From Escherichia phage vB_Ec-M-J: a DNA stretch of 64,000 nt. Location: sequence record OQ718158.1. The stretch is one strand, 5' to 3'. This document shows, piece after piece, positions 10,441-53,602 of this stretch. Made by a program: the position numbers and the translations under genes. Under the pieces are notes generated by a model, which was not told the DNA's origin, searched no databases, and was given only the letters and a program-made list of their open reading frames with translations. How positions within the stretch are numbered: the first letter of the stretch is position 1; every line of letters starts with the position of its first letter.

Positions 10441-10481
10441 TATATGAGTATTGAGTACTGAAAACTATTTTTAAAAAGTAC

Positions 10482-10541
10482 TTGCAAACTATCTCAATAA
10501 GCGTATAATGTTTTACATCGAGAGGGGGAAACGGTTTCCCC
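10482..10541 (+). promoter_or_regulatory. early promoter + 5' stem-loop
   Basis: TTGCAA-16-TATAAT-GTTTTACATC; hairpin GGGGGAAacggTTTCCCC. Confidence 0.65.
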
Positions 10542-10561
10542 TGGTAATAAGGAAACAAATC

Positions 10562-10903
10562 ATGACTATCTCAATTGCTCAATCTAACTTTGAAAATGAA
10601 ATCATCGCCCAGGCACTGCGTTTAAATGATGGTCGGGCCGAAATTAATTACGGTTTCAATTCAGGCGGTTGCGAAAACTATCAGTACTTTGTAACGGCTG
10701 ATGGCGGTGTCCTGGGTATCAATACAGTTATTGTAAACATCCAAAAAATTAATTTCAATGATCCAGACGATAGCCAGTTTTACATCACTGGCGTAGACGT
10801 GAACTATGAGGATGACTCACTAACTGATGATCACACTGGCGAGCGGTTAGAAAGTGCATACGGTGAAGATGATTATCAGTCCGGTCCAGAAGATTTCGAA
10901 TAA
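10562..10903 (+). CDS. hypothetical acidic protein (113 aa)
   Basis: start moved to ATG after RBS AAGGAA. Confidence 0.65.
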   Translation: MTISIAQSNFENEIIAQALRLNDGRAEINYGFNSGGCENYQYFVTADGGVLGINTVIVNIQKINFNDPDDSQFYITGVDVNYEDDSLTDDHTGERLESAYGEDDYQSGPEDFE

Positions 10904-10916
10904 TATAAAAAATAGT

Positions 10917-10976
10917 TTGACAATAGATTATAGTACTGTATAATTAATTACATCAAGGGGAGAAAAACTTCTCCCC
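10917..10976 (+). promoter_or_regulatory. early promoter + 5' stem-loop
   Basis: TTGACA-16-TATAAT; hairpin GGGGAGAAaaacTTCTCCCC. Confidence 0.65.
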
Positions 10977-10998
10977 ACTAACAGAGAGAGAAAACAAA

Positions 10999-11211
10999 AT
11001 GGCTAATATCCGGTCGAAATTAAAAAATGCAAAACAAGTTTTATTTTCAGATCATGAATACTTTAATAAAGATATTACAGGAGTTACAAGTATCAAGGAA
11101 GTAAAAGAAAAAACCGGCGTTTTGTGTGATGTGCGATTAGTTGGGACATTTGGGAATAACGTGCTATATCGCTGCGGTGATTACAATTTTACACTGACTA
11201 TCATTAACTAA
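10999..11211 (+). CDS. hypothetical early protein (70 aa)
   Basis: track ORF; RBS GAGAGAGA. Confidence 0.6.
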   Translation: MANIRSKLKNAKQVLFSDHEYFNKDITGVTSIKEVKEKTGVLCDVRLVGTFGNNVLYRCGDYNFTLTIIN

Positions 11212-11230
11212 AAATATTATCACAGTACTA

Positions 11231-11259
11231 TTGACATAGTTTGATAGTACTGACATAAT
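11231..11259 (+). promoter_or_regulatory. class-B early promoter
   Basis: TTGACA-17-CATAAT. Confidence 0.55.
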
Positions 11260-11294
11260 AACTTTTATCAACTACACTACTAAGGAATTAAAAA

Positions 11295-11474
11295 ATGGCT
11301 ATCATCGCAAAAACTGAAATCGTTGGTCTGGATTCTATCATCATGACGTTTGAAGATCAAAAAGGTATGTATGTAGTTTCCTATGGTGATTATGTTCGGG
11401 AGTATGAAACGGTAGACGAAGCCTTTGAAAGTTATATTCGCCAGGTGAATAAAGCATACGACGACTACCGCTAA
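11295..11474 (+). CDS. small protein (59 aa), not in ORF track
   Basis: ATG after RBS AAGGAA downstream of class-B promoter. Confidence 0.5.
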   Translation: MAIIAKTEIVGLDSIIMTFEDQKGMYVVSYGDYVREYETVDEAFESYIRQVNKAYDDYR

Positions 11475-11501
11475 AATATATTACCAGTACTATTAAATCT
11501 A

Positions 11502-11529
11502 TTGACAACGTTTGATAGTACTGTATAAT
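11502..11529 (+). promoter_or_regulatory. class-B early promoter
   Basis: TTGACA-16-TATAAT. Confidence 0.55.
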
Positions 11530-11573
11530 AAGTTTTATAAACAGTAGTTAACTTAACCTAAGAGAGAAACAAA

Positions 11574-11717
11574 ATGATCGCACTGGATTCATTCATCGAC
11601 GCAGTACTGGCAAAAACTGGCGAGGATCTGACCGCAGAACAATACGCGATGATCGAGCAATGTCAGCAAAACGGTAAATCGGTGAAAGATACTGTTAAGA
11701 TTATCCGCAAGATGTAA
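11574..11717 (+). CDS. small protein (47 aa), not in ORF track
   Basis: ATG after RBS AAGAGAGAAA. Confidence 0.5.
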   Translation: MIALDSFIDAVLAKTGEDLTAEQYAMIEQCQQNGKSVKDTVKIIRKM

Positions 11718-11723
11718 TATTAT

Positions 11724-11752
11724 AGCCCACTGGTTAACGCTGGTGGGCTTTA
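11724..11752 (+). terminator. terminator-like hairpin
   Basis: AGCCCACtggttaacgctgGTGGGCT then TTTAAT. Confidence 0.45.
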
Positions 11753-11816
11753 ATCATTTACCCTATACAATGCCAGTACTAAACCGTTTATCTCGTTAGA
11801 ATGCGTTACAGGACGT

Positions 11817-12020
11817 TTGACAATGATTAGCATGAAATCAGTACAAAAACAAATAGAAACATTATCAAAAATTAAACGTAAACAATACTCGTTAGAATAT
11901 ACAATCAATGGTAACTATCATCTAATGAAAGAAAATAATTTTATAGTCATTGATGAATCATTGCAAGTTATTAGTATAGTACTGAAAGCATTAATTAATG
12001 ATAGAAAAAAATTAAAATAA
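11817..12020 (+). CDS. hypothetical protein (67 aa), AT-rich
   Basis: track ORF; no clear RBS or promoter. Confidence 0.4.
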   Translation: MTMISMKSVQKQIETLSKIKRKQYSLEYTINGNYHLMKENNFIVIDESLQVISIVLKALINDRKKLK

Positions 12021-12023
12021 TTG

Positions 12024-12052
12024 TTGACATACAATGCCAGTACTGGCATAAT
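12024..12052 (+). promoter_or_regulatory. sigma70-like promoter upstream of box and GATC cluster
   Basis: TTGACA-17-CATAAT. Confidence 0.5.
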
Positions 12053-12077
12053 ACTTACATCAAGACGAGAACGTCAC

Positions 12078-12106
12078 TAACCCATAGGGTGCACAAATGT
12101 AACTAT
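12078..12106 (+). promoter_or_regulatory. conserved box copy
   Basis: TAACCCATAGGGTGCACAAATGTAACTAT. Confidence 0.45.
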
Positions 12107-12110
12107 ATAA

Positions 12111-12190
12111 TATCGATCAATAAATGATCAAAAAAGTACTGGATCAATTTAGCATAAGGAGTATAATTCTGATCAATTCTTGATCAAAGG
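12111..12190. repeat. cluster of five GATCAA repeats
   Basis: cGATCAAtaaatGATCAAaaaagtactgGATCAAttt..ctGATCAAttcttGATCAAagg. Confidence 0.6.
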
Positions 12191-12348
12191 CAATATACGC
12201 AGTTGAATTTATATAGACAGTACAAAGGCGTTACTATCCGTGGTAATGCTGATGGATATGTAGTATCATACGGTTTGAATAAGATAAGCACTAGTAGTAT
12301 TATTGTAGCATTACAGTACTATAGTATTTTTATAATGAGGTTAAAATA

Positions 12349-12606
12349 ATGGCTGTTGGATTCGCGAAGGACGGGGCCGAGCAAGACGAGATTAACGCAG
12401 TTATTCAGGCCGCTGTAAACCACGCTAGAACGCAAATTAACGCACAAATAGAATCACTGATACATTGCCTCGACTGTGGCGATAAAATCCCTGAGAATCG
12501 CCGCCAGGTCGTTAAGGGGTGTAAGTACTGTATCACTTGCCAGGAGGATCATGATAGTACTTTTAAACGTCAACCGCGTAATTGTTGGCATAGATCTATG
12601 AGATAA
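12349..12606 (+). CDS. TraR/DksA-family C4 zinc-finger protein
   Basis: C-x2-C-x15-C-x2-C-x2-C (HCLDCGDKIPENRRQVVKGCKYCITCQ), typical of TraR/DksA zinc fingers. Confidence 0.7.
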   Translation: MAVGFAKDGAEQDEINAVIQAAVNHARTQINAQIESLIHCLDCGDKIPENRRQVVKGCKYCITCQEDHDSTFKRQPRNCWHRSMR

Positions 12607-12612
12607 AAAGTA

Positions 12613-12640
12613 TTGACAGTACTATCCAGTAGTGTATAAT
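12613..12640 (+). promoter_or_regulatory. early promoter
   Basis: TTGACA-16-TATAAT-GTTTTATATC. Confidence 0.55.
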
Positions 12641-12669
12641 GTTTTATATCTTAACTGAGGATAGAAATC

Positions 12670-13026
12670 ATGGGAATACAACATATCACGCGTACTACTG
12701 ACAATGGCGAGATCACTGGCTATCAAGTACAGGGCAAAGTAGCACAATTGCAGTACTGGTTTGTTAAACGTGGAATCATTGCACCGGATCTTGATTATGA
12801 CCGTGTAGCGTTTATTGATTCTCTTTATGTTGATCCTGATAGTCGGGGGAATGGTGAAGGTAACGAATTAATGAATGCCTTTATTGATGCCGCCGATGAT
12901 TCAGATTGTATCATCTTAGAATGCGATACGGGAGAAGATAACGCCTTTAATCTTAAAGAATGGTATGAAGGTTTCGGATTCGAGGTACTGATCGATAGTG
13001 AATATCCTATCATGATTTTATCATAG
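12670..13026 (+). CDS. GNAT-like acetyltransferase (putative)
   Basis: acetyl-CoA motif A-like VDPDSRGNGEGNELMNAF (R-x-x-G-x-G) and C-terminal Y..GFGFE. Confidence 0.5.
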   Translation: MGIQHITRTTDNGEITGYQVQGKVAQLQYWFVKRGIIAPDLDYDRVAFIDSLYVDPDSRGNGEGNELMNAFIDAADDSDCIILECDTGEDNAFNLKEWYEGFGFEVLIDSEYPIMILS

Positions 13027-13028
13027 TA

Positions 13029-13089
13029 CTTGCATTTAGTTTTCAGTACTGTATAATAGTTTACATGAAGGGGAGAATAGTTCTCCCCA
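13029..13089 (+). promoter_or_regulatory. early promoter + 5' stem-loop
   Basis: TTGCAT-17-TATAAT; hairpin GGGGAGAAtagTTCTCCCC. Confidence 0.6.
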
Positions 13090-13105
13090 CTACAAGGAAA
13101 GACAA

Positions 13106-13294
13106 ATGGAAAACTTATCAAGTATTTTAGTACAAGATGATTTCGGTAATCCTGGAAGTGCTATCATTGTTCGGGGTAATAAAGCAACGTTTGTTATTGC
13201 TGGTGGACCCGTACAGCGTAGCATTAAAAATAATGCTGTTACCATTAATAATGTACGCTATCGCTTAGATAAAGAATTAATTCATAAACTGTAA
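13106..13294 (+). CDS. hypothetical early protein (62 aa)
   Basis: track ORF; RBS AAGGAAAGA. Confidence 0.6.
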   Translation: MENLSSILVQDDFGNPGSAIIVRGNKATFVIAGGPVQRSIKNNAVTINNVRYRLDKELIHKL

Positions 13295-13302
13295 AAAAGT
13301 AC

Positions 13303-13363
13303 TGGACAATAGATTATAGTACTGTATAATAAGTTACATGAAGGGGAGAAAATGATTCTCCCC
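13303..13363 (+). promoter_or_regulatory. early promoter + 5' stem-loop
   Basis: TGGACA-16-TATAAT; hairpin GGGGAGAAaatgaTTCTCCCC. Confidence 0.55.
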
Positions 13364-13380
13364 ACTAAGAGGAAAGAAAA

Positions 13381-13593
13381 ATGCAAGGTCAACTAATCGT
13401 TCGTAAATGGTCTGATACTAACGCTAAACCGTGGGATGTACAATACATCGCCCCCAATGGTGAATCCAGATATCAACCAGGTGTAACGCATAGTACTGAG
13501 CAATTCGCCGCCGCTCATCGTGAACGTCTGTTACAATCAATGCAGCAAGGTTTCGGTGAAAAATTCATTCAGGATCATTGGCTGAAAGATTAA
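13381..13593 (+). CDS. hypothetical early protein (70 aa)
   Basis: track ORF; RBS AAGAGGAAAG. Confidence 0.6.
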   Translation: MQGQLIVRKWSDTNAKPWDVQYIAPNGESRYQPGVTHSTEQFAAAHRERLLQSMQQGFGEKFIQDHWLKD

Positions 13594-13600
13594 AAAGTTC

Positions 13601-13660
13601 TTGCACAGTACTGAATAAAGTGTATAATGTTTTATATCGAGAGGGGAATAGTTCCCCTCC
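13601..13660 (+). promoter_or_regulatory. early promoter + 5' stem-loop
   Basis: TTGCAC-16-TATAAT; hairpin GAGGGGAAtagTTCCCCTC. Confidence 0.6.
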
Positions 13661-13679
13661 TAACAAAAAGGAAAGTATA

Positions 13680-13853
13680 ATGATCCAAGTAGAATTATCA
13701 GTACTGAAAGATCTATTTTATCGGTTAGGTACTAATGGCGAGTATCCTAAAAGTGATACCGCAAAACTTTTTGTATCACTCGACTTATGGCAACGCGAAC
13801 AATTAGTAATGTCGTGGCGTAAAGGTAAAGCAGATCGCGAGGTGAAAGCATGA
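13680..13853 (+). CDS. hypothetical early protein (57 aa)
   Basis: start moved to ATG after RBS AAGGAAAG; track start 13578 is a TTG in the promoter. Confidence 0.55.
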   Translation: MIQVELSVLKDLFYRLGTNGEYPKSDTAKLFVSLDLWQREQLVMSWRKGKADREVKA

Positions 13854-13999
13854 AAGAATTCTTATTTGAAGTAGTGTTTCAAGGTGTCGGTAGTAACCAA
13901 CTGATTCGCTCAAGTGGTTACAATGTTAACCAGGCATGGAATAACATTAAACAAATGTACCCGAACGCTATCACATATCGCAACCCGAAAGAAGTTTAA
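13850..13999 (+). CDS. small protein (49 aa), not in ORF track
   Basis: ATGA overlap with upstream stop; coordinates +/-1. Confidence 0.4.
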   Translation: MKEFLFEVVFQGVGSNQLIRSSGYNVNQAWNNIKQMYPNAITYRNPKEV

Positions 14000-14005
14000 A
14001 AATAA

Positions 14006-14092
14006 TTGAAAAAGGGATTGACTCCGGTCAGTCCCTTTGCTATTATATACGCATAGAAACAAATTAGCCCACCGGGTGCATAAATGTATCTA
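14006..14092 (+). promoter_or_regulatory. composite element: hairpin/promoter + conserved box
   Basis: AAAAAGGGATTGACtccgGTCAGTCCC; TTGACT-17-TATTAT; TAGCCCACCGGGTGCATAAATGTATCTAT. Confidence 0.55.
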
Positions 14093-14146
14093 TTGTTTGC
14101 TGGTGGCTAGTACTATCAAGTACTGAAAACTATTTTTAAAAAGTAC

Positions 14147-14174
14147 TTGCAAAGTATCACGATAAGCGTATAAT
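14147..14174 (+). promoter_or_regulatory. early promoter (long leader)
   Basis: TTGCAA-16-TATAAT-GTTTTACATC. Confidence 0.6.
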
Positions 14175-14262
14175 GTTTTACATCAGGACGGGGAACGAAA
14201 CAAGTAACCCCGTTAAGTAGTCCAGGAGTAAGACATACGAAAAACTCCCCTGATAAAATAGT
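14175..14262 (+). promoter_or_regulatory. structured leader, second copy of 3721..3810
   Basis: near-identical sequence to 3721..3810. Confidence 0.5.
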
Positions 14263-14290
14263 TTGACAATAGAAAGTAAACGAGTATAAT
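14263..14290 (+). promoter_or_regulatory. second (tandem) promoter before 14324 gene
   Basis: TTGACA-16-TATAAT. Confidence 0.5.
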
Positions 14291-14323
14291 ACTTACATCA
14301 ACCACTGATAAGGAAACATTAAA

Positions 14324-14599
14324 ATGCGGATTCTACTGACAGCTAACGAAATCGAACAAGTACTGACTACTAACCTGGAAGACTGGAAACGTGAAGCAGA
14401 TATCCAGGCGGTTCAATGGCTTAATGATAAGTTAACGCCGGATGATTTAAGTAAGATTGTAGATCCTCAATTCTACGAAGATATTCACGACACCGCGTTA
14501 AGCGTCGAGGATGTACTTGATAAGCACTACATTGATACTGATTTACATGTTTACGGTCGTAAAAACTTTATCACTATTCACGACATTTACAATACTTAA
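14324..14599 (+). CDS. hypothetical early protein (91 aa)
   Basis: track ORF; RBS AAGGAAA. Confidence 0.65.
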   Translation: MRILLTANEIEQVLTTNLEDWKREADIQAVQWLNDKLTPDDLSKIVDPQFYEDIHDTALSVEDVLDKHYIDTDLHVYGRKNFITIHDIYNT

Positions 14600-14602
14600 G
14601 TA

Positions 14603-14662
14603 TTGACAAAGTATCTTAGTACTGTATAATAGTTTACATCGAGAGGGGAAACGGTTCCCCTC
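14603..14662 (+). promoter_or_regulatory. early promoter + 5' stem-loop
   Basis: TTGACA-16-TATAAT; hairpin GAGGGGAAacggTTCCCCTC. Confidence 0.65.
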
Positions 14663-14685
14663 CTAACAAAGAGAGAGAAATAAAA

Positions 14686-14868
14686 ATGGCTAAGTGCACT
14701 ATCTGCAAGAAAGAAATAGTATTAGTTCCAAGTGCCCGTGAACGTGCCGCTCGGTTTGGTGGCAAAGCGTCAGACTATACAAAAATGTTTACTGCCCATA
14801 CAGCTTGCCAGGTAGCAAAACGTTCACAAGAAAGCGTAGAATTAATGCGTAAACTTTCCAAAAAATAA
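14686..14868 (+). CDS. small basic protein with CxxC..C (60 aa)
   Basis: track ORF; MAKCTICKK...HTACQ. Confidence 0.6.
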   Translation: MAKCTICKKEIVLVPSARERAARFGGKASDYTKMFTAHTACQVAKRSQESVELMRKLSKK

Positions 14869-14871
14869 GTA

Positions 14872-14931
14872 TTGACAAAGTATCTTAGTACTGTATAATA
14901 GTTTACATCAAGCGAGGGGAATGGTTCCCCT
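14872..14931 (+). promoter_or_regulatory. early promoter + 5' stem-loop
   Basis: TTGACA-16-TATAAT; hairpin GAGGGGAAtggTTCCCCTC. Confidence 0.65.
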
Positions 14932-15826: not shown

Positions 15827-15831
15827 ACAAC

Positions 15832-42350: not shown

Positions 42351-42894
42351 ACTTGACTTAGCATTTGAGCGTGTAAAAATCTTCATTGAAACTTATCTTA
42401 TGCATGAAACTATACTGAAAACAAAAGGAATATGGTTCACTGATAAATTTCTTACTATGGCTATGAGAGGTGGAATGAAACATCTGTACTGCACAGATAA
42501 TGCAAGAATTTCAGTACTGAATTATGATGAAAGTGTAGCATCCAGTACCAGTTTAATTTCTACATACAATGATAATGTTATTAGTATTATGTGCAATATG
42601 AATGTCCCATCTATTTCTGTATATAAAAACTGTGATAGTTCATTGGAGTACAAGATTGAGCAGTACTTATATCCTAACACAGAAGAAAACATCTTTCAAA
42701 ATAGTCTTATGTGGGATGATACATCTACTAAGTGCATATATCTTTATAATAAATTAAAAGAGTACATTGTTGATAGTTCAATTAGTACTGCTGTATTCAG
42801 TGTTACTGTTTTTAATGATAATCGTGAAGATATGAGTTATTACAGAGACATTGTAAGAATACATGCAATGTATAAGGATCTACTATGTTATTAA
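42340..42894 (+). CDS. F2 paralog
   Basis: start moved to ATG after RBS GAAGG (track 42298); EENIFQNSL. Confidence 0.5.
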   Translation: MYNELDLAFERVKIFIETYLMHETILKTKGIWFTDKFLTMAMRGGMKHLYCTDNARISVLNYDESVASSTSLISTYNDNVISIMCNMNVPSISVYKNCDSSLEYKIEQYLYPNTEENIFQNSLMWDDTSTKCIYLYNKLKEYIVDSSISTAVFSVTVFNDNREDMSYYRDIVRIHAMYKDLLCY

Positions 42895-43487
42895 ATGCAA
42901 ATAAATGTTGTAGTACTGAGGTTCATTTGTATTTTAAGAAATTAGTAAATGATATTATCTATATGCAAGAAATCATTTATCACAAAAGAATGGACTTAGA
43001 AAAAGCATTAGTTCAGTTCTCTTTTAATCTCGATGGTGATATATCGTTAGATGGTGATGGATTGCGTATAGCATTTGACGGTAATACAAATAGGGTTTTC
43101 TTTTGGATAGATAATAAATTATGTTCATCAATATGTCGTACTTTTTATAACCCTATTTCGGACTTATATCAATTGGTGTATTCTAAAGGTGCAGTTGAAG
43201 CATCATACGGTGATAGCTTTGCACTAGGGAAGAGTATCCCATATATGCAATCATTTGATATTGAATTAGTCAGTACTGATGAAGATGCAATGTTCACAAA
43301 TGATATAACAATGCAGCGTGAATCTGCAATGAGATATATTACAAATTCTATGCATACATTCTTCGAAAGAGCAGAATTTGATAATGTGTACATAGCAAAT
43401 GTAAATATTTTTACTGACCTTTGTCAGTTCTTGAGAAGTATTTTTGATTTCGATGAAAGCTATTGTAAGCTTTATACTGAGGTTTAA
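42885..43487 (+). CDS. hypothetical protein (200 aa), weak F2-like
   Basis: track ORF; motif degenerate (DEDAMFTND). Confidence 0.45.
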   Translation: MLLNANKCCSTEVHLYFKKLVNDIIYMQEIIYHKRMDLEKALVQFSFNLDGDISLDGDGLRIAFDGNTNRVFFWIDNKLCSSICRTFYNPISDLYQLVYSKGAVEASYGDSFALGKSIPYMQSFDIELVSTDEDAMFTNDITMQRESAMRYITNSMHTFFERAEFDNVYIANVNIFTDLCQFLRSIFDFDESYCKLYTEV

Positions 43488-44780: not shown

Positions 44781-45263
44781 ATGTCCAAAGACCTATCATT
44801 TAGCAATGCACAAAAAATCGCACAAAATATCATTAAACTTCATAAGTTCCTTTTAACAGTTAAAGAGAATATAATTCTCCCACGATGCACACTTTATGCG
44901 TACAAAAATTATTTGTCAATGAATAGCAATTTGTTGCATACTACAGATGAGAATTTCTGTGGTATTCGTGTACTTGACGATGCACCAACAGGGGATTTTA
45001 TCTCATATTGTTTCCATACATCTGATAGTTTTAAGTACTATCATCCTAGATTTAATGATGATGAATATGAATATGACACATTTAATGTTAGATCAGAAGA
45101 AGAATTCTTCCAGTACAGTACTTTGTACAATGAGAGAATCGTGTTTAGTTCTACAATTTTTACAGTACTTAAAGATGAACTCAATGACGCAGATGATAGA
45201 TTCTATATGGATTTAAACTTCGTAGATGAAATCATTGAGTACATGGAGAAAAATGGTCTATGA
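44781..45263 (+). CDS. F2 paralog
   Basis: track ORF; SEEEFFQYST. Confidence 0.6.
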   Translation: MSKDLSFSNAQKIAQNIIKLHKFLLTVKENIILPRCTLYAYKNYLSMNSNLLHTTDENFCGIRVLDDAPTGDFISYCFHTSDSFKYYHPRFNDDEYEYDTFNVRSEEEFFQYSTLYNERIVFSSTIFTVLKDELNDADDRFYMDLNFVDEIIEYMEKNGL

Positions 45264-45742
45264 TTACAACAGAATATGATTACGATGGTGTTTTAGAATT
45301 TGCATCTAACATTCATCGCATTGCAAAGGAGTTCAGAAGTCCCCAACCTTTCGGTGGAATGCCTTTTGGTGGAATGTTCCAATATGACCAATTCAGTTCA
45401 ACCAAAGGAAGACTTGCCTTTAAAAATAATAAGGGCAATCAAGTATATGCTGAGTTCTTTGACGATAATGACTTTCACTACAGAGCTGAATATATTTCAT
45501 ATTGCCAAGGGTCTGATTTGAAGATTAACATTGATACATTTAGAGATTCAGTGTTTATCCCTTATAGTGAGTTAGTTTTCATGACAGAAGAAATGTACTT
45601 CCAAGGGTCTTGTATTCATGATGCAAAAGTACTTAATGCTATATTACTTTATGGTGCACTACTTCATCATTACAAATACAAACAACGATTCTTTATAGAT
45701 TTAGTTGTATACCATCAATGCGTGGATTATTTGAATGCATAA
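45260..45742 (+). CDS. F2 paralog
   Basis: ATGA overlap; TEEMYFQGSC. Confidence 0.6.
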   Translation: MITTEYDYDGVLEFASNIHRIAKEFRSPQPFGGMPFGGMFQYDQFSSTKGRLAFKNNKGNQVYAEFFDDNDFHYRAEYISYCQGSDLKINIDTFRDSVFIPYSELVFMTEEMYFQGSCIHDAKVLNAILLYGALLHHYKYKQRFFIDLVVYHQCVDYLNA

Positions 45743-46494: not shown

Positions 46495-46976
46495 TGAACC
46501 GAAAGTACAGAGAAACTATGAAGTTCGCTAAGGAGTGTTTAGAGACAGTTGATTTCATTTTCGATAACAAAGACTCATTGGGTCGCCACTTCGTAATTAC
46601 AAAGAAAGAAGATAAGAGATACAAATGTCAACGATTAGGATACAGTATTGAGTTCTCCTTAATGATTGATGGCATGATAAACTCCTTATATGAATGTGGT
46701 AAGACTGATTACATTTCATTTAGATCTTGGAGTGAACGTGTCATGTTCTTGACTCCAAATGGAGTTGTATATCCTTTTCTTGATGATTTATCAGAAGAAA
46801 GTTACTTTCAAAATAGTTTAATTTACACAGAAAAAGAACTCAAAATGCTATTCATTATGTCGTACTTTAAAAAGTACTGCAATTTTAAATCATTATCTTT
46901 TGAGATCTCTGCAATGAAAGTATTCATTAAAAATGTAAAAGAATTAAAGAGGATTTACGATGTACATAGAAAATGA
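46482..46976 (+). CDS. F2 paralog
   Basis: track ORF; SEESYFQNSL. Confidence 0.55.
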   Translation: MERLMNRKYRETMKFAKECLETVDFIFDNKDSLGRHFVITKKEDKRYKCQRLGYSIEFSLMIDGMINSLYECGKTDYISFRSWSERVMFLTPNGVVYPFLDDLSEESYFQNSLIYTEKELKMLFIMSYFKKYCNFKSLSFEISAMKVFIKNVKELKRIYDVHRK

Positions 46977-47502
46977 TAATGTAAAATGCATTGCCGACAT
47001 TTGTATAAAATTAATGAAAATTTTCATTAACCCAAAATACAAGACTCGTTCTTTACGTCATAATATTGATGATCATTGTGTAATTACTATTCTAGGTAGT
47101 ATGCTTGATGTAAAGTACGATGGTAAATTGTTATTCGGTGTCCGAGAAGAGAAGATAGATGATGTCTTCTTTTCTCCTAAAGATAAGTTTGAACCTTCTG
47201 ATTATAAAGTAATTATTCGTGATGATAGTATCTACATTAGTAGTGACTATTCAAATTACGTCGAACAGATATACACTGAAAATGTTGACTACAACCATGA
47301 ACTACTAGATTTACCAACATCAGACATAGATATGGAGAGAATCAAATTTTCATTATCAAATAATGAGTACTTAGGTATACAAACATATTATGCACTTCAG
47401 GGAAAGATTCCACCTGCGATGTATATAAGAATTGAGATTGGTAATGTATTCAGTGATACGGTTATATCAATTGCTGATAAAATATTGAAGGTACAATTAT
47501 GA
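46960..47502 (+). CDS. hypothetical protein (180 aa)
   Basis: track ORF; no clear family motif. Confidence 0.45.
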   Translation: MYIENDNVKCIADICIKLMKIFINPKYKTRSLRHNIDDHCVITILGSMLDVKYDGKLLFGVREEKIDDVFFSPKDKFEPSDYKVIIRDDSIYISSDYSNYVEQIYTENVDYNHELLDLPTSDIDMERIKFSLSNNEYLGIQTYYALQGKIPPAMYIRIEIGNVFSDTVISIADKILKVQL

Positions 47503-48056
47503 ATTTTACTAATTATAATTTACATAGACTTGAATTACGTCATTGTATTGCATTTGCAAAAACATTAATGTGCATCATTGATACACTATCATCTAAAACT
47601 TTTCGAAAGGATAATGATTTATGCCTTAAAAAAGGTAAAGTACAAAAATACGATTATACAGATGAAACGTATTTTGATATCTTTTTGGGAACAAATGATA
47701 GTACAAGAGTAGGATGTTTGGGAACAGTTGGAACACATTGCTTTACATGGAATCCAAATTCAAGTAAAGTACGAATTGACACCAACGATACATGTTATGC
47801 TGACCTTAGTACTGAATCTGATTTAGAATCAGTTATGTTCCAACACATGTTAATTCATAAACCAAATGAAATTCTTTATCTTGTTGCTTTTAGTTATCTC
47901 TTACAAAATTATAAATCAGGTTTTACTATTGAAACTGATATCGATGAGATTATGGATGAGATTCCTAGTTTAAAAGATATTCTTGAAGAAAAAGATTTCT
48001 ATCAGGACTTTAGAGATTTATACAACATGCACAGGGAGTTATCTGATAATGAATAA
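47499..48056 (+). CDS. F2 paralog
   Basis: ATGA overlap; ESVMFQHML. Confidence 0.5.
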   Translation: MNFTNYNLHRLELRHCIAFAKTLMCIIDTLSSKTFRKDNDLCLKKGKVQKYDYTDETYFDIFLGTNDSTRVGCLGTVGTHCFTWNPNSSKVRIDTNDTCYADLSTESDLESVMFQHMLIHKPNEILYLVAFSYLLQNYKSGFTIETDIDEIMDEIPSLKDILEEKDFYQDFRDLYNMHRELSDNE

Positions 48057-48567
48057 AGATGATATTCTAATCAGACTAATCAACAGTCTGTTAAAATTCG
48101 TGAATAGTGATAGTGATACACACAATGTAGGTGACATTGAATTCAAATCATTTGGAATGTACGGTGAGGACAAAACATATTATGCATCAATGAAATTCCA
48201 AGATTATTATGAAATGTTAATTGCGTTAACATACGAAGATGTGGACCCAAGATGGAGTTCCAGTATTTCTCTGTCGAGAATGGTAATTCGTAGTAAACAT
48301 CGTTACATTTCGTCAAAGAATACTCCTAATTTGTTTGATATTGTTTTGAATGAAAATACCAACCCCCCATCTAAACATGATATCGTACCTTTAACTGATG
48401 AAGTACAGTTTCAATTGAGTACCATTTGTGATGAAGATGTGATATCATGTATGAAAATTTACGAGAAGATTGGTAGTGATATCCCTAAGAACTATTACAT
48501 AACAATAGATGGAACGTACCTCCGAGATGAGGCTCTAGCGTACATTGACAGCGTTTTACCAAAATAA
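48049..48567 (+). CDS. F2 paralog
   Basis: start moved to ATG after RBS AGGGAG (track 47983); DEVQFQLST. Confidence 0.5.
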   Translation: MNKDDILIRLINSLLKFVNSDSDTHNVGDIEFKSFGMYGEDKTYYASMKFQDYYEMLIALTYEDVDPRWSSSISLSRMVIRSKHRYISSKNTPNLFDIVLNENTNPPSKHDIVPLTDEVQFQLSTICDEDVISCMKIYEKIGSDIPKNYYITIDGTYLRDEALAYIDSVLPK

Positions 48568-48590
48568 AGACCCTTATGGGTCTTTTTGTG
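48568..48590 (+). terminator. rho-independent terminator
   Basis: AGACCCttatGGGTCT then TTTTTG. Confidence 0.7.
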
Positions 48591-48598
48591 TTTAGTGC

Positions 48599-48627
48599 TT
48601 TACATGAGCATTCAGGTGTGTTATAAT
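48599..48627 (+). promoter_or_regulatory. internal array promoter
   Basis: TTTACA-17-TATAAT. Confidence 0.5.
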
Positions 48628-48654
48628 CGCTTTTAACAGAGTACAGGAGAAGAT

Positions 48655-49218
48655 ATGAGTACTGAATTAATTAAAGAAATCACATTGTTGGTAAAGCATT
48701 GTTTTAAGTTCATTGATGATAATGGTTCACGCCAGTACATTAAAGTTAATGAGAAATATAACATTAACGTCCTAAAGAATGAAACCGTTAACAGTTATGC
48801 AAACATTGAGTTAGATGTTGAGGACAAATACACAGCATTACACATCATTTCGTCCGGCGATAGAAAACAAGATTATCGTTCTACATTTTATGATGATAGT
48901 GTTACTGTTGGTTATAAATTTCATAAAAATAAAATTGCCTATAAGAATACATACACACATGAAGTAATTGAAGAGTACAATTATAAAATTAAAAAAGACG
49001 AGTACGATGTACTTTTATTCAATGCGAACCTCATACACAACGCTGGTACTGTTCGCAATCTTATGTTAGCATATGAAATTCCAAAGATTATAGAAAGAAA
49101 TGAATTGATAATCTTTAAAACTATATTAAAATTCAGTACAGAAGAATTAGAAGATCTAGTACTGGCTCTTAAGACGTTCATCAATGAACATGTACCTGTT
49201 AAATTAGAGGACTTATAA
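48655..49218 (+). CDS. hypothetical protein (187 aa)
   Basis: track ORF; RBS CAGGAGAAG; motif absent. Confidence 0.5.
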   Translation: MSTELIKEITLLVKHCFKFIDDNGSRQYIKVNEKYNINVLKNETVNSYANIELDVEDKYTALHIISSGDRKQDYRSTFYDDSVTVGYKFHKNKIAYKNTYTHEVIEEYNYKIKKDEYDVLLFNANLIHNAGTVRNLMLAYEIPKIIERNELIIFKTILKFSTEELEDLVLALKTFINEHVPVKLEDL

Positions 49219-49802
49219 TGCAAGCTGAACACATTCAAATTATGAAATTGATGCATGACATTGCAGAACTATCTGAAAAGCACAACATTACTGAACATGA
49301 GCCTATTGGAAATTATCGTCTTAAAGTTGAATGCAAATCACCATATCGTTTTGGTTCAGTAGTACTGGAGTCTTATAAAGTTTACGATTATGGAACGACG
49401 AAAAAAGGTTCATGGGATACTATGGCAATGTATATCCGAACATCAAGGCATAGTGAGCAAATCGGTTCCATTACTCCAAACATGATATTTGTCAATGCTT
49501 TACACGAAGATATTAATCGAATTGTTGAATCTAATTTTGATGACGTAGAGAATGATACATATTTGGAAATTCCACCAGAACTAGATCAAAGTGAAGACAT
49601 TCGTGAAGCATACATTTTCCAGAGATCAGTACTTGACAACTTCAAGGAGTTTGAGTACATGATGCTTTGCTATGAAACTGCAAAAGCTATTGACACTGGT
49701 GAATTGGTAATGTATAGTAAGTTCATTAACTGTGAATCCGATACATTAAAAGAGCTACACACGGCAATCAAAAACATCAAGGATACATATGAACGCTTAT
49801 AG
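49218..49802 (+). CDS. F2 paralog
   Basis: track ORF; REAYIFQRSV. Confidence 0.5.
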   Translation: MQAEHIQIMKLMHDIAELSEKHNITEHEPIGNYRLKVECKSPYRFGSVVLESYKVYDYGTTKKGSWDTMAMYIRTSRHSEQIGSITPNMIFVNALHEDINRIVESNFDDVENDTYLEIPPELDQSEDIREAYIFQRSVLDNFKEFEYMMLCYETAKAIDTGELVMYSKFINCESDTLKELHTAIKNIKDTYERL

Positions 49803-50367
49803 TTATATGACAGCCCGACACCAACAGCTATATGATATCAGTACAAAGATGCTACACATTGTTGGTAGTGCCAAAGAAATTAACAAACATTACCTCATTC
49901 GTGATGTGTCATTTTCATCTAAATGTATGTCCAAAGAATATTACGATCACGGTATTCTTACTATTTCTGGTGCCAGGAATATTTGTATTGTAAAAAATAA
50001 TAGTAAAAGTAATGAAGAGTGCGAGATTAGATCCGATATCCAAATTAATGATGATGGAAGTTTTTCACACCATCCATTTCATATTAGTACTGTTGGTGTT
50101 TTATATAATATTAAAGTACTATTCGGTGATAAAGAGTATGAGTTAAAAGCTATCAATCCAGAATCAAGTACAGTTGATGAAGAACTGTTTCAGATGAGCA
50201 CCGTTATACCTGAAGAGGTTCTTAGTACTGTTATTTTTTGTAGTTTAATTTATCACACATACAAAAAGTTCCAGTTCGATTTCCACATTTTAGGAACGTA
50301 CATCTTCAATACTTTGAATGTTGATCGTTTAAAAGCATTAAATGCAGCAATGGATAAGGTGCTATAA
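49789..50367 (+). CDS. F2 paralog
   Basis: track ORF (start could be 49807); DEELFQMST. Confidence 0.5.
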   Translation: MNAYSYMTARHQQLYDISTKMLHIVGSAKEINKHYLIRDVSFSSKCMSKEYYDHGILTISGARNICIVKNNSKSNEECEIRSDIQINDDGSFSHHPFHISTVGVLYNIKVLFGDKEYELKAINPESSTVDEELFQMSTVIPEEVLSTVIFCSLIYHTYKKFQFDFHILGTYIFNTLNVDRLKALNAAMDKVL

Positions 50368-50795: not shown

Positions 50796-51298
50796 GTTTA
50801 TTAAATGCACGAGAATTAGTTGAGATGTATGAGATCTTATCTTCATATAAAAATTCCCCAAAAGATGTAATTCTCAACAAAAAGTTCCATGTCAATGTTG
50901 ATCATATGAAAAATATAGATATGATTTCTTTAGTGGAAAGTCGTAAATCGGGTCTTGAGCGTGATATCATGCGTTTGATTTATATTAACAAACCATCATA
51001 TACTAATGATAGTTCAATTAGTAATGAGACGTTTTTGTACACTCCTTATACTGATTGTACTTTAGTTTCAATGTCTAATCAGAAACAAGATACTATCCAA
51101 TTCATCAATACCAGTACTGATAACATTGAAGAAAATGAATTCCAAAACAATACATTAAGTTCATGTAGTAGTGTTATAACCTTTATGTCATATCTGTGGT
51201 CAATCAAATCAAATGCAATTGTATATAGTTCTAATTACACACAAGATAGTATTGTTGAATCATTTAAAGTTCTAAAGGAATACTATGAAAATAACTAA
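50792..51298 (+). CDS. F2 paralog
   Basis: ATGA overlap; EENEFQNNT. Confidence 0.5.
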   Translation: MSLLNARELVEMYEILSSYKNSPKDVILNKKFHVNVDHMKNIDMISLVESRKSGLERDIMRLIYINKPSYTNDSSISNETFLYTPYTDCTLVSMSNQKQDTIQFINTSTDNIEENEFQNNTLSSCSSVITFMSYLWSIKSNAIVYSSNYTQDSIVESFKVLKEYYENN

Positions 51299-51866
51299 TG
51301 ATTTTATTAGAAGCTTAGTGCACCCTATGCTTGGTGTTATGAAAAAACTACAGACTCTACCTGAAGACAACGATTACAAGTTTAATCGTTTTGATTCGGA
51401 TGTGTTTTGTATTGAAATGGAAATTAATAACAATCGTTATTTTCATTTAAAATTCAAAGAATCGTCGAGTTCGCACTACAACTTTGACATGAATTTTAAA
51501 ATAAGCAATGATATTGAAGAAAACGCAATATCAAATCATATTAGCAGAAATGGTTTCATGCATAGAACTAATATGTTCAATAATAAAAACAGTATTATAT
51601 CTAAATGGAATCATCAATTCACTAAAATTTGTGATATTGATTGCAGTACATTTGGTGAAGAACAATACTTTCAGTTAAGTACAATACATGAACTTCCACC
51701 ATATGATTGTGTAAAAACATGGTTTGATATTCATAATATAATTGATGATGCAATCGTACTTCCATTTGGGTTGTCAATATCATATACTGCACCTAAAACG
51801 TTTGTTTTTACTGAAGATATGATTATGAAAAAGATATGGGCGATGATGCCACTTATGCTTGATTAA
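51285..51866 (+). CDS. F2 paralog
   Basis: track ORF; GEEQYFQLSTIHEL. Confidence 0.55.
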   Translation: MKITNDFIRSLVHPMLGVMKKLQTLPEDNDYKFNRFDSDVFCIEMEINNNRYFHLKFKESSSSHYNFDMNFKISNDIEENAISNHISRNGFMHRTNMFNNKNSIISKWNHQFTKICDIDCSTFGEEQYFQLSTIHELPPYDCVKTWFDIHNIIDDAIVLPFGLSISYTAPKTFVFTEDMIMKKIWAMMPLMLD

Positions 51867-51877
51867 CGGAGAACTAC

Positions 51878-52429
51878 ATGAATCAAAGTCATGATCTTTT
51901 TAAATTATGTGCATCCAAAGATGTGGAAGGATGGGCAGATAAAATCAATACAATTATTAACCGTTATCTTGGCTTCTGTGCACGATCACGAAGTGAAGGT
52001 TCAATGCGTTTCCAAATAACCATGACAATCGATGGTGTTACGATTTATGTCAACGAAGAACGTCTTGGTATTAATCTCTATGATAGTTGTGTCTTTGCTA
52101 TTCACCAGAAAATGGGGGCAGGTTGGGGTTGTAATAATATGAACACCAATGCATTTTTCTGGGTAGGTCATAGCAACACAGTACTTGATCCTTCAAAGAA
52201 ATCAAACCTTTTAGATGATAATTTGGTATATGATTTAGCTTACTCTGAAGAACAACATTTCCAGTTAAGTACAATACATAGCTTAGTTCAATATGACGAT
52301 TGTATCAAAGCATTAGAATTATGCCATTCACTTGAACTTAAAGAAAAATTGATACAAATTTACCCATTGTTCTTCCATGAAGAAGTACAATGCACACTAG
52401 ATCATATTTTATATGGGTACGACAAATGA
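51878..52429 (+). CDS. F2 paralog
   Basis: track ORF; SEEQHFQLSTIHSL; paralog of 51285 gene. Confidence 0.55.
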   Translation: MNQSHDLFKLCASKDVEGWADKINTIINRYLGFCARSRSEGSMRFQITMTIDGVTIYVNEERLGINLYDSCVFAIHQKMGAGWGCNNMNTNAFFWVGHSNTVLDPSKKSNLLDDNLVYDLAYSEEQHFQLSTIHSLVQYDDCIKALELCHSLELKEKLIQIYPLFFHEEVQCTLDHILYGYDK

Positions 52430-53028
52430 GAAAAAGTTATCAAGAAGCTATTGACCTAATTCGAGAAGTTATTAAGGCGGCTCCAGGTGCGATAGCATTC
52501 AAGAAGTCCCTATATAAAAAGTATGGTCCCATGTCAAGTATGTGCTGTCAAAAGAAACGTAGTAAATTTACTACGCAGTACTGGCATGATTCTATTATCC
52601 TGAGTAATGAACATCAGCGTATTTTAACAATCGAATCAGTAGATAATCAATATGGTGAAGGAATGATTTGTGTTCCTGACTATGATGAAATTAATTTCAA
52701 TTGTGGAGATTATGAGACAACATTATTATTACACGAGGGTTACCCTGAAGGTGATGTAATGGCAGAGTATAATCCAAAAACCAAAATACTGAAACGTGGT
52801 ATGCAGTTCAAAATCAATAACAAAGATGATGTGGAAGCAGCACTAATGCAACTTAGTACTAGTGAACCTATCACTATTGATGTAGAAGAGTTATGGGGCA
52901 TCATTTCAGTACTTAATGAGTGTTATAAAATTAAATCATTACATAAGTACTCTATCATTTTACATACTAATTGTGCAATGATAAAATGCAAGAACATACA
53001 AGAGATGGTGGTTCCAGATGAACTTTAA
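52426..53028 (+). CDS. F2-like paralog
   Basis: ATGA overlap (track 52390); variant motif EAALMQLST. Confidence 0.45.
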   Translation: MRKSYQEAIDLIREVIKAAPGAIAFKKSLYKKYGPMSSMCCQKKRSKFTTQYWHDSIILSNEHQRILTIESVDNQYGEGMICVPDYDEINFNCGDYETTLLLHEGYPEGDVMAEYNPKTKILKRGMQFKINNKDDVEAALMQLSTSEPITIDVEELWGIISVLNECYKIKSLHKYSIILHTNCAMIKCKNIQEMVVPDEL

Positions 53029-53602
53029 AGAAATAGAAAGTAAAATTAAGTACTTCAAAGATATTAAAAAACTTTGGGAAAAGTATAAAATTGATTATCA
53101 GTTCCAAGATGATGATACTGTTCAAAACATTGATATTAATATTCGTGTGAAGTTCAAGAATGGTAGTTATGGTGAAGTTAAATTGAATGCTATTGGTGTA
53201 TTCCTTAAAGATTATGATGGTTCTTCACTTGCTCAATTCGATTTCACACCTGATCCTGATGATATGTTACTGAGTGAAATCAATGCATATGACCTTGAGA
53301 TGTTTAGTGGGAAGCCTTTACTATTCCGCTTATCAGATGAATGGGATGAGGTTTACTACACATACAAAGATGGAGTGATTCGAGACGTGAATGATGAAGT
53401 AGTAAATGATATGGAAGAACGTCTATTTCAAGAATCATGTGTGTCATCGGAGTCATATACATATCAATATCTTCTTGACATGTTCGATTTGTATAGTAAA
53501 ATAGATTCAGAAATGAGTACTTTAAGTATTCAATACCTTACAATCAACGACTATGCACAACTTGAAACAGTAGTGAAAGCTCTGGTCAAAGTACTGAAAT
53601 AG
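53018..53602 (+). CDS. F2 paralog
   Basis: track ORF; EERLFQESC. Confidence 0.5.
   Translation: MNFKEIESKIKYFKDIKKLWEKYKIDYQFQDDDTVQNIDINIRVKFKNGSYGEVKLNAIGVFLKDYDGSSLAQFDFTPDPDDMLLSEINAYDLEMFSGKPLLFRLSDEWDEVYYTYKDGVIRDVNDEVVNDMEERLFQESCVSSESYTYQYLLDMFDLYSKIDSEMSTLSIQYLTINDYAQLETVVKALVKVLK

Follow-up and report, generated by a model that had tools for sequence, protein, structure and literature searches.

[quoted passage not shown] To our knowledge, no function has been firmly established for YbiI, another protein of the DksA/TraR family. Among small proteins of the GNAT type, AcrVA5 (PDB 6iuf) is an anti-CRISPR of ∼95 residues that acetylates Cas12a, and some members, including PanZ, are CoA-dependent regulators rather than enzymes.

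Residues R48 and R49 of TraR touch the rim helices and β′ Si3 of RNAP, and the C-terminal helix contacts β Si1 (PMC9239242). Each of the five phage homologues of TraR examined to date binds RNAP and complements a dksA deletion; some C4 proteins of the DksA family devoid of the DxxDxA motif are inactive on RNAP (PMC9239242). Overexpressed YbiI reportedly rescues dksA-deletion auxotrophy (mentioned as data not shown), but its gene lies in an iron-metabolism operon and the authors of that study favoured a role related to iron (PMC2613031). A family of GNAT domains has been described from polyvalent proteins, with ART neighbours and solo versions; it is placed in a RimI-like clade and predicted to modify proteins (Iyer et al. 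2017, PMC5512222). As for the genomic setting, Rak2-like phages need the host RNAP and have RpoD-like early promoters, and in these phages arrays of short ORFs with such promoters are taken as the early region (PMC5259590).

Organization of the locus

The DNA analysed here, a 64-kb stretch referred to below as the window, belongs to a jumbo coliphage of the Asteriusvirus (121Q) type and is 98.5% identical to Escherichia phage Turkey3 and 93% identical to 121Q. The two adjacent genes of the first-pass annotation were recovered at the coordinates given there, as plus-strand ORFs of 85 aa (zinc-finger gene, 12349..12606) and 118 aa (GNAT gene, 12670..13026). In the RefSeq record of 121Q the same two genes are labelled "DksA-like zinc-finger protein" and "GNAT family N-acetyltransferase", and both labels also pre-exist in the RefSeq/GenBank records of other close phages (SHEFM2K, JP4 and others). 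Given that the genes had previously been labelled in this way, and that both families are large and well described, the discovery value of the assignments themselves is small. Purifying selection acts on the two genes: relative to 121Q and BF17, dN/dS is 0.09–0.18 in the zinc-finger gene and 0.06 in the GNAT gene.

The two genes form part of an array of short ORFs that each have a near-consensus sigma-70 promoter upstream, an arrangement of the kind regarded as early in Rak2-like phages. From this we infer that the two genes are expressed early, and the host-takeover functions previously suggested for them are plausible.

The nearest strong candidate promoter for the zinc-finger gene is a sigma-70-like element at 12024..12052 on the plus strand (TTGACA-17-CATAAT with a TG extension; 11/12 consensus positions; repeat family D1/D2/D6). 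It would transcribe a bicistron consisting of a 48-aa ORF with a TTG start (12203..12349, plus strand) and the zinc-finger gene. The leader 5′ of this bicistron carries five GATCAA repeats, i.e. Dam sites (12115..12187), which form the densest GATC cluster in the window and are identically spaced in 121Q. The 48-aa ORF is the equivalent of 121Q gene 293 (92% amino acid identity). Its stop codon overlaps the ATG of the zinc-finger gene (TAATG), which suggests translational coupling of the two; a Shine-Dalgarno sequence, GAGG, is found at 12337–12340. No homology to the 48-aa ORF was found for the ORF located upstream of the zinc-finger gene in the T4-like phage MN04, and a two-gene cassette comprising a small ORF and the zinc finger is therefore unsupported.

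The GNAT gene has a dedicated sigma-70 promoter of perfect consensus (TTGACA-16-TATAAT; 12/12; repeat family D1) at 12613..12640 on the plus strand, and a Shine-Dalgarno sequence, GAGGA, 7 nt 5′ of its ATG. It is followed on the same strand by a regulatory cassette (13030..13088; families D1, D2 and D4) in which a further promoter copy, TTGCAT-16-TATAAT, is combined with a stem-loop, GGGGAGAA-TAG-TTCTCCCC, ahead of a 62-aa ORF at 13106..13294. Since the stem-loop has no T-run, it may not be a terminator.

The zinc-finger protein and its relation to YbiI and TraR

Assignment of the 85-aa protein to the DksA/TraR family is borne out by a match to Pfam zf-dskA_traR (PF01258; 43.9 bits against a gathering cut-off of 24.9, E-value of 2.3e-11) and by one to PHROG 54, 'DksA-like zinc-finger protein' (E-value of 1.8e-18). 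The best NCBIfam family was YbiI (NF008243), positions 1–73 of the 88-position profile being aligned to residues 1–74 with 80.1 bits, under the equivalog cut-off of 96. Sequence searches of the PDB retrieved YbiI (2kgo) with an E-value of 8.7e-12 and TraR with one of 3e-6; with a profile of the family the respective values were 2.8e-22 and 1.7e-11. As judged from these matches, the protein represents a YbiI-like branch of the DksA/TraR family. It was matched in 959 phage records (tblastn).

The zinc site differs from that proposed in the first-pass annotation, where the spacing had been given as C-x2-C-x15-C-x2-C. The cysteines of the protein are C40, C43, C58, C61, C64 and C79, the first five of which read C-x2-C-x14-C-x2-C-x2-C. 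Only C40, C43, C61 and C64 are invariant in alignments of 19 and 46 sequences covering 45 phage homologues, YbiI and TraR, whereas C58 is variable and alternates with Val. The four invariant residues are the zinc ligands, in the arrangement C-x2-C-x17-C-x2-C, which on alignment proves to be the canonical one of the family. Further invariant columns are I47, P48, R51, R52 and Q65 (alignments A1 and A3; in A1, database matches confirm the sequence of TraR from residue 15 onwards and that of YbiI up to its last 19 residues). The zinc-binding core, C40 to C64, is encoded at 12466..12540 on the plus strand and includes I47-P48-x-x-R51-R52, corresponding to I44-P45-x-x-R48-R49 of TraR in the register of the HMMER alignment.

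With YbiI (2kgo; NF008243/PRK11019) the protein can be aligned over its full length at ∼37% identity. Common to the two are the M-A-x-G-(F/W)-A start, a long helix, the C-x2-C-x17-C-x2-C site, the I-P-x-x-R-R element, C-x-x-C-Q and a basic C-terminus ending in R. Unlike YbiI, the phage clade displays an invariant tail of its own, F-K-R-x-P-R-N-C-W-H-R-S-M-R, and a conserved K-D-G-A-E-Q tip. In some T4-like phages the tail is matched separately, on its own (phrog_25948).

F-plasmid TraR belongs to the same Pfam family, is of similarly small size and possesses an equivalent zinc globular domain, R48/R49 of TraR being R51/R52 here; as with TraR, lambda Orf73 and P2 Orf82, the gene resides on a mobile element that uses the host RNAP. 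However, the TraR alignment is limited to the zinc domain, starting at phage residue 18 or 21 and ending at residue 71–74, and lambda Orf73 covers only residues 29–75. The N-terminal ∼20 residues are unaligned, TraR residues 1–17 being unmatched; at this tip the protein resembles YbiI, not TraR. This N-terminus reads M-A-V-G-F-A-K-D8-G-A-E11-Q-D13-E14, with D8 and E11 nearly invariant and residue 13 varying. The DxxDxA motif of TraR was looked for in it and is not there: a DxxE pair is present instead, with no Ala at +5, and in an ungapped register D8 and E11 are two residues off D3 and D6 of TraR. The phage protein is also 12 residues longer, with a C-terminal helix that is shortened in the model and a different tail after it.

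The structural model is of moderate confidence (pLDDT 74.7) and comprises a helix at residues 6–28, the zinc knuckle and a short C-terminal helix (residues 62–68), after which the conserved basic R-N-C-W-H-R-S-M-R tail is modelled at low confidence. It could be superposed on RNAP-bound TraR with a TM-score of 0.55 and an rmsd of 3.5 Å, and YbiI was matched structurally as well.

Taken together, the zinc-finger protein most likely binds the host RNAP. It would act like TraR or lambda Orf73, the conserved I-P-x-x-R-R element contacting the rim of the secondary channel and the long N-terminal helix inserting into it so as to change the kinetics of initiation. What counts against action on RNAP is the missing DxxDxA motif, the short C-terminal helix predicted in the model, the model's moderate confidence and the iron-related role suggested for YbiI. 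We consider it possible, albeit rather unlikely, that the protein does not act on RNAP at all and instead has another role of the YbiI type, perhaps in metal or stress responses, or binds nucleic acids or proteins through its knuckle and tail. [quoted passage not shown] On the other hand, the RNAP-contacting I-P-x-x-R-R element is invariant, and the long helix opens with a nearly invariant acidic i/i+3 pair, D8 and E11, comparable to the DxxD/E tips known from DksA, the Gre factors and TraR. The reported rescue by YbiI likewise argues against this alternative, as does the presence of the protein in hundreds of lytic phages dependent on the host RNAP.

The YbiI-like clade is common in enterobacterial T4-like and jumbo phages and does without the DxxDxA tip of TraR. 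It would make a cheap target for assays, and those already set up for TraR and lambda Orf73 would suit it.

The GNAT protein and its relatives

The acetyltransferase assignment of the second ORF is likewise supported, by Pfam Acetyltransf_1 (37.2 bits against a threshold of 20.7, E-value of 4.1e-9), Acetyltransf_7 (33.5 against 27 bits) and Acetyltransf_10 (26.3 against 23.6 bits), although the known GNAT profiles match only the C-terminal 60% of the protein and are themselves matched only in their C-terminal part. For this protein and the zinc-finger protein alike, searches of Pfam, PHROGs, NCBIfam, PDB sequences and structures returned significant matches. The R-G-N-G-E-G segment previously likened to motif A was found at residues 59–64 and fits the Q/R-x-x-G-x-G/A pattern of the pyrophosphate-binding loop (12844..12861, plus strand). 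In an alignment of 38 family members (A2) G64 is invariant and R59 and G62 are present in at least 90% of the sequences; D86, E89, W98 and Y99 are also conserved. Y99, a tyrosine of the general-acid type, together with D86 and E89 would be compatible with catalysis of acyl transfer.

AlphaFold2 predicted a GNAT fold with confidence (pLDDT 94.1, pTM 0.87) and beta-beta-alpha-beta-alpha-beta-alpha-beta-beta topology, and Foldseek matched the model with a probability of 1.0 to dozens of solved GNATs. The acetyl-CoA-binding core is kept, with the R-x-x-G-x-G loop between beta4 and alpha3 and the invariant W98-Y99 in beta5-alpha4; the usual alpha1-alpha2 arm is replaced in the model by one helix (residues 25–33) that follows a family-specific beta-hairpin. 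By family and predicted fold, the 118-aa protein is thus a minimal GNAT acetyltransferase. Its structural neighbours include the protein acetyltransferases Naa60, Naa30, Naa50, RimI and Ard1. AcrVA5, likewise a minimal GNAT on a mobile element, is also among the top structural matches (TM-score of 0.62 by query and 0.75 by target; rmsd of 2.9–3.0 Å), yet it shares just 16–17% identity with the phage protein, was missed by sequence searches and has a different N-terminal module.

A word-indexed protein search recovered only the protein's own cluster; the wider family, 290 relatives, was seen only with an exhaustive search. Some of these relatives are homologous domains (E-values of 1e-9 to 1e-14) within large multidomain proteins, where their partners are ART-PolyVal, PARP, ParB_N, NUDIX and Amidoligase_2. 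Examples of such architectures are GNAT with ART-PolyVal and NUDIX (P0110), GNAT with PARP and ParB_N (P0063) and Amidoligase_2 with GNAT (P0115). Judging from these matches, the phage protein belongs to a family of short GNATs that also occurs as a domain of polyvalent proteins; by domain context it matches the family described by Iyer et al. (PMC5512222). Unlike the polyvalent-protein domains, the protein studied here is a solo GNAT that has its own, presumably early, promoter and lies outside any injected giant protein. Among 50,697 phage records searched by tblastn (E-value of 1e-3 or lower), only 24 carried it. None of these was from a Pseudomonas phage, and no similarity to the Rac-type GNAT of phiKMV-like phages was found at this threshold.

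The protein could not be assigned to any one characterized enzyme (RimI, AAC, PAT, PanZ, AtaT, AcrVA5 and Rac were considered), since the matches were generic, confined to the acetyl-CoA-binding half or structural only. The best NCBIfam match, for instance, was rimI, with weak ones to AAC(6′) and ArsN far under the family cut-offs.

Most likely, the GNAT acetylates a host protein, transferring the acetyl moiety of acetyl-CoA to an amino group, as proposed for its relatives in polyvalent proteins. That it has no protein target, and would instead acetylate a small molecule (an antibiotic, polyamine or metabolite) or serve as a non-catalytic regulator that binds acetyl-CoA, seems to us unlikely. 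The former possibility is suggested by the aminoglycoside acetyltransferase AAC(3)-XI, the best PDB sequence match of the family profile, by matches to phosphinothricin and puromycin acetyltransferases and by the weak NCBIfam ones just mentioned, and the latter by the CoA-dependent regulator PanZ, which is among the structural matches. However, the matches to enzymes acting on small molecules extend over the generic acetyl-CoA-binding half only and are far below family cut-offs, whereas the structural neighbours are mostly N-terminal or protein acetyltransferases and AcrVA5. Moreover, the ART, PARP and ParB fusion partners of the relatives point to macromolecular targets in a conflict setting, and the conservation of Y99, D86 and E89 likewise speaks against this alternative. 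A solo GNAT of 118 aa, easily expressed, could help to find the target of the polyvalent-protein domain.

Independence of the two genes and plasticity of the region

The first-pass annotation treated the zinc-finger and GNAT genes together, but the pairing that this implies is unsupported, and a conserved gene pair or operon is rejected. The genes have their own promoters, and blastn of the window against the Asteriusvirus phage BF17 showed that a 408-bp segment bearing the GNAT gene (12636..13043, plus strand) is absent from the latter; in the annotation of BF17 the zinc-finger gene is followed directly by the 62-aa ORF. The region as a whole was matched by 42 records, with the GNAT gene carried by only 24 (compared with 959 for the zinc-finger protein). 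Outside Asteriusvirus the two genes were adjacent in none of ten other loci examined, namely one Stephanstirmvirinae phage, the T4-like phage MN04 and eight metagenomic or assembly loci (L003–L005 and L008–L012).

Each of the two breakpoints of the indel falls in the −10 region of a different promoter copy, which is what recombination between cassettes would be expected to produce. Comparable elements are the PeSL cassettes of T4-type phages, in which strong sigma-70 promoter repeats and a stem-loop flank small non-essential genes, as they do here (PMC2839356, PMC4122927). Unlike in PeSL cassettes, the stem-loop follows the promoter, within the 5′ leader, and lacks a T-run, and the phage lineage is a different one. 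That the GNAT gene is present in some of these phages and missing from another, with the breakpoints located in repeated promoters, suggests cassette shuffling of the PeSL type in Rak2-like jumbo phages too.

The reading that we favour, and regard as modestly probable, is that the two genes are early, non-essential and independent of each other, one for a YbiI-like zinc finger acting on the host RNAP and the other for a minimal GNAT acetylating a host protein. The plastic early region of this Asteriusvirus-type phage would then be composed of small gene cassettes with one promoter each.

A bolder version of this reading is improbable. It holds that the zinc finger forms a distinct, phage-specific branch of secondary-channel proteins and that the solo GNAT is a free-standing effector of the polyvalent-protein type. 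Members of the branch, which occur in Asteriusvirus and many T4-like phages, are ∼85 aa long and would be set apart by two replacements, the DxxDxA motif giving way to a conserved MAVGFAKDGAEQ tip and the Si1-binding helix to an RNCWHRSMR tail. On this view RNAP could be bound in a new mode, perhaps because a longer tip extends as far as the active site or because the tail docks on a different surface, and the GNAT could acetylate one particular host target, for instance a defence protein, a component of translation or a subunit of RNAP.

Highly improbable is a functional module in which the GNAT acetylates the zinc-finger protein, e.g. at its conserved N-terminus (M)AVGF, or the two proteins work together on RNAP: the genes adjoin on the same strand in a presumably early region, the GNAT resembles N-terminal acetyltransferases (RimI, Naa), the N-terminus of the zinc finger is nearly invariant and the phage GNAT Rac is mentioned, in a statement of PMC7824862 citing other work, as targeting the RNAP alpha subunit, but against this stand the separate promoters, the patchy distribution of the GNAT gene described above, a zinc-finger clade widespread in T4-like phages without an adjoining GNAT, GNAT relatives elsewhere without a zinc-finger neighbour and the lack of sequence similarity to the Rac-bearing Pseudomonas phages (E-value of 1e-3 or lower).

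In base composition, the zinc-finger gene has a GC content of 46.5% and a GC3 of 45%, compared with a GC3 of 30 ± 5% for the background of larger ORFs. The high GC3 could reflect recent horizontal transfer of the gene, but short early ORFs nearby reach values of 49–52%.

Identification and distribution of the two genes

The first-pass annotation had proposed that a TraR/DksA-type zinc-finger protein and a GNAT-like acetyltransferase are encoded side by side, and open reading frames are indeed present on the plus strand at 12349..12606 (85 aa) and 12670..13026 (118 aa). Profile searches upheld membership of the first protein in the DksA/TraR family (zf-dskA_traR, 43.9 bits; cut-off 24.9) and of the second in the GNAT family (Acetyltransf_1, 37.2 bits; cut-off 20.7), with further matches to PHROG 54 and to acetyltransferase PHROGs. 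The R-G-N-G-E-G segment was located at nt 12844..12861 (GNAT residues 59–64). The C-x2-C-x15-C-x2-C spacing read earlier in the zinc-finger protein has to be corrected: the invariant cysteines give the canonical C-x2-C-x17-C-x2-C. The earlier interpretation is supported as regards the family membership of both proteins, the functions of which are predicted. Purifying selection acts on both genes: dN/dS is 0.09–0.18 in the case of the zinc-finger gene and 0.06 in that of the GNAT gene.

The surrounding region (11500–14000) shares 98.5% identity with Escherichia phage Turkey3 and 90–95% with numerous Asteriusvirus jumbo coliphages, among them 121Q, SP27 and WPEC3/5. In the 121Q RefSeq record the counterpart genes 294 and 295 are labelled 'DksA-like zinc-finger protein' and 'GNAT family N-acetyltransferase', respectively. 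Therefore, the identification repeats existing annotation and the finding is an ordinary one. Moderate novelty is confined to two points, namely an uncharacterised phage clade that resembles YbiI but differs from TraR in tip and tail, and the connection of a solo mini-GNAT with the GNAT domains of polyvalent proteins.

The zinc-finger and GNAT genes do not form a pair

The possibility that the two genes constitute a functional pair was rejected on account of their separate expression signals, uneven distribution, absence of the GNAT gene from phage BF17 and lack of a shared neighbourhood elsewhere. The GNAT gene possesses its own perfect promoter (TTGACA-16-TATAAT, 12613..12640) and its own Shine-Dalgarno sequence. 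The zinc-finger gene is probably coupled in translation, through a TAATG overlap, to a 48-aa ORF upstream (12203..12349). Tblastn searches retrieved relatives of the zinc-finger protein from 959 phage records and the GNAT from only 24, nearly all of them Asteriusvirus; at the nucleotide level, 42 records match the region. T4-like phage MN04 carries the zinc-finger gene and lacks the GNAT gene. Conversely, no zinc-finger gene was found near the GNAT relatives of a Stephanstirmvirinae Klebsiella phage and of eight metagenomic or assembly loci, at all nine of which the relative sits among short unannotated phage genes. At one metagenomic locus (L003) the relative, 48% identical, belongs to a block of short, phage-like genes and is close to genes for a SocA_Panacea-domain protein and an AAA_23 (SMC-like) ATPase (L003 5107–5598 and 3312–4178).

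Within Asteriusvirus the GNAT gene shows presence/absence polymorphism (12636–13043 versus 2923–2931 of the BF17 locus). In BF17, 408 bp (12636..13043) are missing and a 62-aa ORF (13106..13294 in our sequence) directly follows the zinc-finger gene. Because both breakpoints fall within -10 regions belonging to two copies of a repeated promoter, AGTAGTGTATAAT and AGTACTGTATAAT, we suggest that the GNAT gene was gained or lost through recombination between promoter repeats.

The zinc-finger protein as a putative RNA polymerase ligand

The closest solved relative of the zinc-finger protein is E. coli YbiI (2kgo), with which the alignment starts at residue 1 (E = 8.7e-12 with the single sequence, 2.8e-22 with the clade profile). 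The match to F-plasmid TraR is limited to residues 18/21–74 (E = 3e-6 and 1.7e-11, respectively). The YbiI equivalog is also the top NCBIfam model, yet it scores under its cut-off (80 versus 96 bits). T4-like phages commonly carry homologues with 64–76% identity; examples come from Citrobacter phage Moon, Yersinia phages MHG19 and fHe-Yen9-01, and Escherichia phages RZ and MN04. When the protein is aligned with phage homologues, YbiI and TraR, four of its six cysteines (C40, C43, C58, C61, C64 and C79) prove invariant (C40, C43, C61 and C64), and C58 alternates with Val. Other invariant or nearly invariant positions in the clade are M1-A-V-G-F-A-K-D8-G-A-E11-Q, R27, I47-P48, R51-R52, Q65, D69 and the tail R77-N-C-W-H-R-S-M-R85. 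An AlphaFold2 model of moderate confidence (pLDDT 74.7), comprising a helix (6–28), a zinc knuckle and a short helix (62–68), superposes on YbiI and on TraR from RNA polymerase complexes (TM 0.55, rmsd 3.5 Å).

Three functional elements have been named for TraR-type regulators: DxxDxA at the N-terminus, the globular-domain residues R48/R49 and a C-terminal helix touching Si1 of the beta subunit (Gopalkrishnan et al., PMC9239242). The arginine pair has a counterpart in R51/R52 of the phage protein. DxxDxA, however, is absent, with only a conserved D-x-x-E in a stretch that cannot be aligned with TraR, and the C-terminal helix is predicted to be shorter, with another conserved basic tail standing in its place. 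C4 family members without these elements can be inactive (PMC9239242). A role at RNA polymerase is supported by the binding of all five tested phage TraR homologues to the enzyme (PMC9239242) and by overexpressed YbiI, which reportedly relieved amino-acid auxotrophy in a dksA deletion (data not shown in PMC2613031). The protein is a DksA/TraR family member and not a demonstrated TraR-type regulator; binding in the RNA polymerase secondary channel is its most likely mechanism, a prediction to which we give roughly an even chance.

Some T4-like phages, vB_EcoM_SA35RD and PhAPEC2 (OL960577.1, KF562341.1), match only the C-terminal 26 residues (60–85; 12526–12603), including the RNCWHRSMR tail, with ~70% identity. 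This segment is equivalent to phrog_25948, a family of 54 aa with no assigned function, and may represent a truncated-gene remnant or an independently retained tail module. The zinc-finger gene has a GC content of 46.5% (GC3 45%), compared with 34.7% for the window and a GC3 of 30 ± 5% for larger ORFs. Several short early ORFs nearby are equally GC-rich at third positions; therefore, base composition is mixed throughout the early region.

The GNAT protein is related to GNAT domains of polyvalent proteins

Known GNAT profiles cover only residues ~40 to 110 of the 118-aa protein. A word-indexed protein search recovered its own cluster only, while an exhaustive search yielded 290 relatives (44 at E ≤ 1e-10), most of them 117–140 aa long and aligned end to end. 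Conserved in the family are a hairpin at the N-terminus (G-S-x-x-G-Y-x-V), a helix with E-Q-L-x-N-W, motif A (R59, G62, G64), D86 and E89, and W98-Y99 is invariant. The confident AlphaFold2 model (pLDDT 94.1, pTM 0.87) has the topology beta-beta-alpha-beta-alpha-beta-alpha-beta-beta, a GNAT core in which the customary alpha1–alpha2 arm is cut down to one helix. All its structural neighbours are GNATs (11–24% identity), among them the N-terminal or protein acetyltransferases Naa60, Naa30, Naa50, Ard1 and RimI as well as AcrVA5, a minimal GNAT with anti-CRISPR function (TM 0.75, normalised to target length); the viral matches are short, uncharacterised GNATs.

In about twenty relatives the domain resides inside a large protein, and six of the ten scanned carry extra domains (ART-PolyVal and NUDIX, PARP and ParB_N, Amidoligase_2, or DUF5661). 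These fusions fit the description of polyvalent-protein GNATs, predicted protein modifiers of a RimI-like clade that have ART neighbours and solo versions (Iyer et al., PMC5512222). The same group proposed, by analogy with Rac, that jumbo-phage GNATs target host proteins such as RNA polymerase (PMC7824862); tblastn against phage records revealed no sequence link to the Rac-bearing Pseudomonas phages. Protein acetylation is our best inference for the role of the protein.

Promoter cassettes and other repeats

Nine copies of one promoter cassette occur within 6 kb around the two genes (10000–16000), seven of which match the sigma-70 consensus at 12 of 12 positions. The promoter is often followed by a GGGGAGAA..TTCTCCCC stem-loop (five copies) and a purine-rich Shine-Dalgarno sequence, the full order being A-rich stretch, TTGACA-N16-TATAAT, ArTTTACATSAA, stem-loop, Shine-Dalgarno and ATG (for example at 10910–10999, 12606–12652, 13023–13111, 13296–13386, 14596–14692 and 14865–14962). 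In Rak2-like phages, blocks of short ORFs rich in RpoD-like promoters are considered to form the early, host-takeover region (PMC5259590). In its arrangement and in the GNAT indel bounded by promoters, the region resembles the PeSL (promoter-early stem-loop) cassettes by which modules are shuffled in T4-type phages (PMC2839356, PMC4122927), but here the stem-loop is downstream of the promoter, in the 5' leader, and lacks a T-run.

Five GATCAA repeats (Dam sites) within 72 bp (12115–12187) form the densest GATC cluster of the window, in which GATC is under-represented (141 observed versus about 202 expected). The cluster, located in the leader between a promoter (12024–12052) and the bicistron of the 48-aa ORF and zinc-finger gene, accounts for four of the window's six TGATCAA matches and is identically spaced in 121Q. 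It is possibly a Dam-/SeqA-sensitive site or a regulator-binding site. Two further repeat families were found: TAGCCCACAGGGTGCATAAGTG, which contains a short palindrome (10412–10446, 12078–12112 and 14065–14099), and a 66-nt element (10334–10399 and 13992–14057) with the hairpin GGTTGACTCCGGTCAGCC followed by GCTATTATAT, scoring as both promoter-like and terminator-like. No tRNA genes were found across the window. A long same-strand run of ~160–220-aa ORFs, many overlapping or abutting, occupies 30000–64000 (for example 42885..43487, 44781..45742, 46960..50367 and 51285..53602) and resembles a series of mid-sized paralogues.
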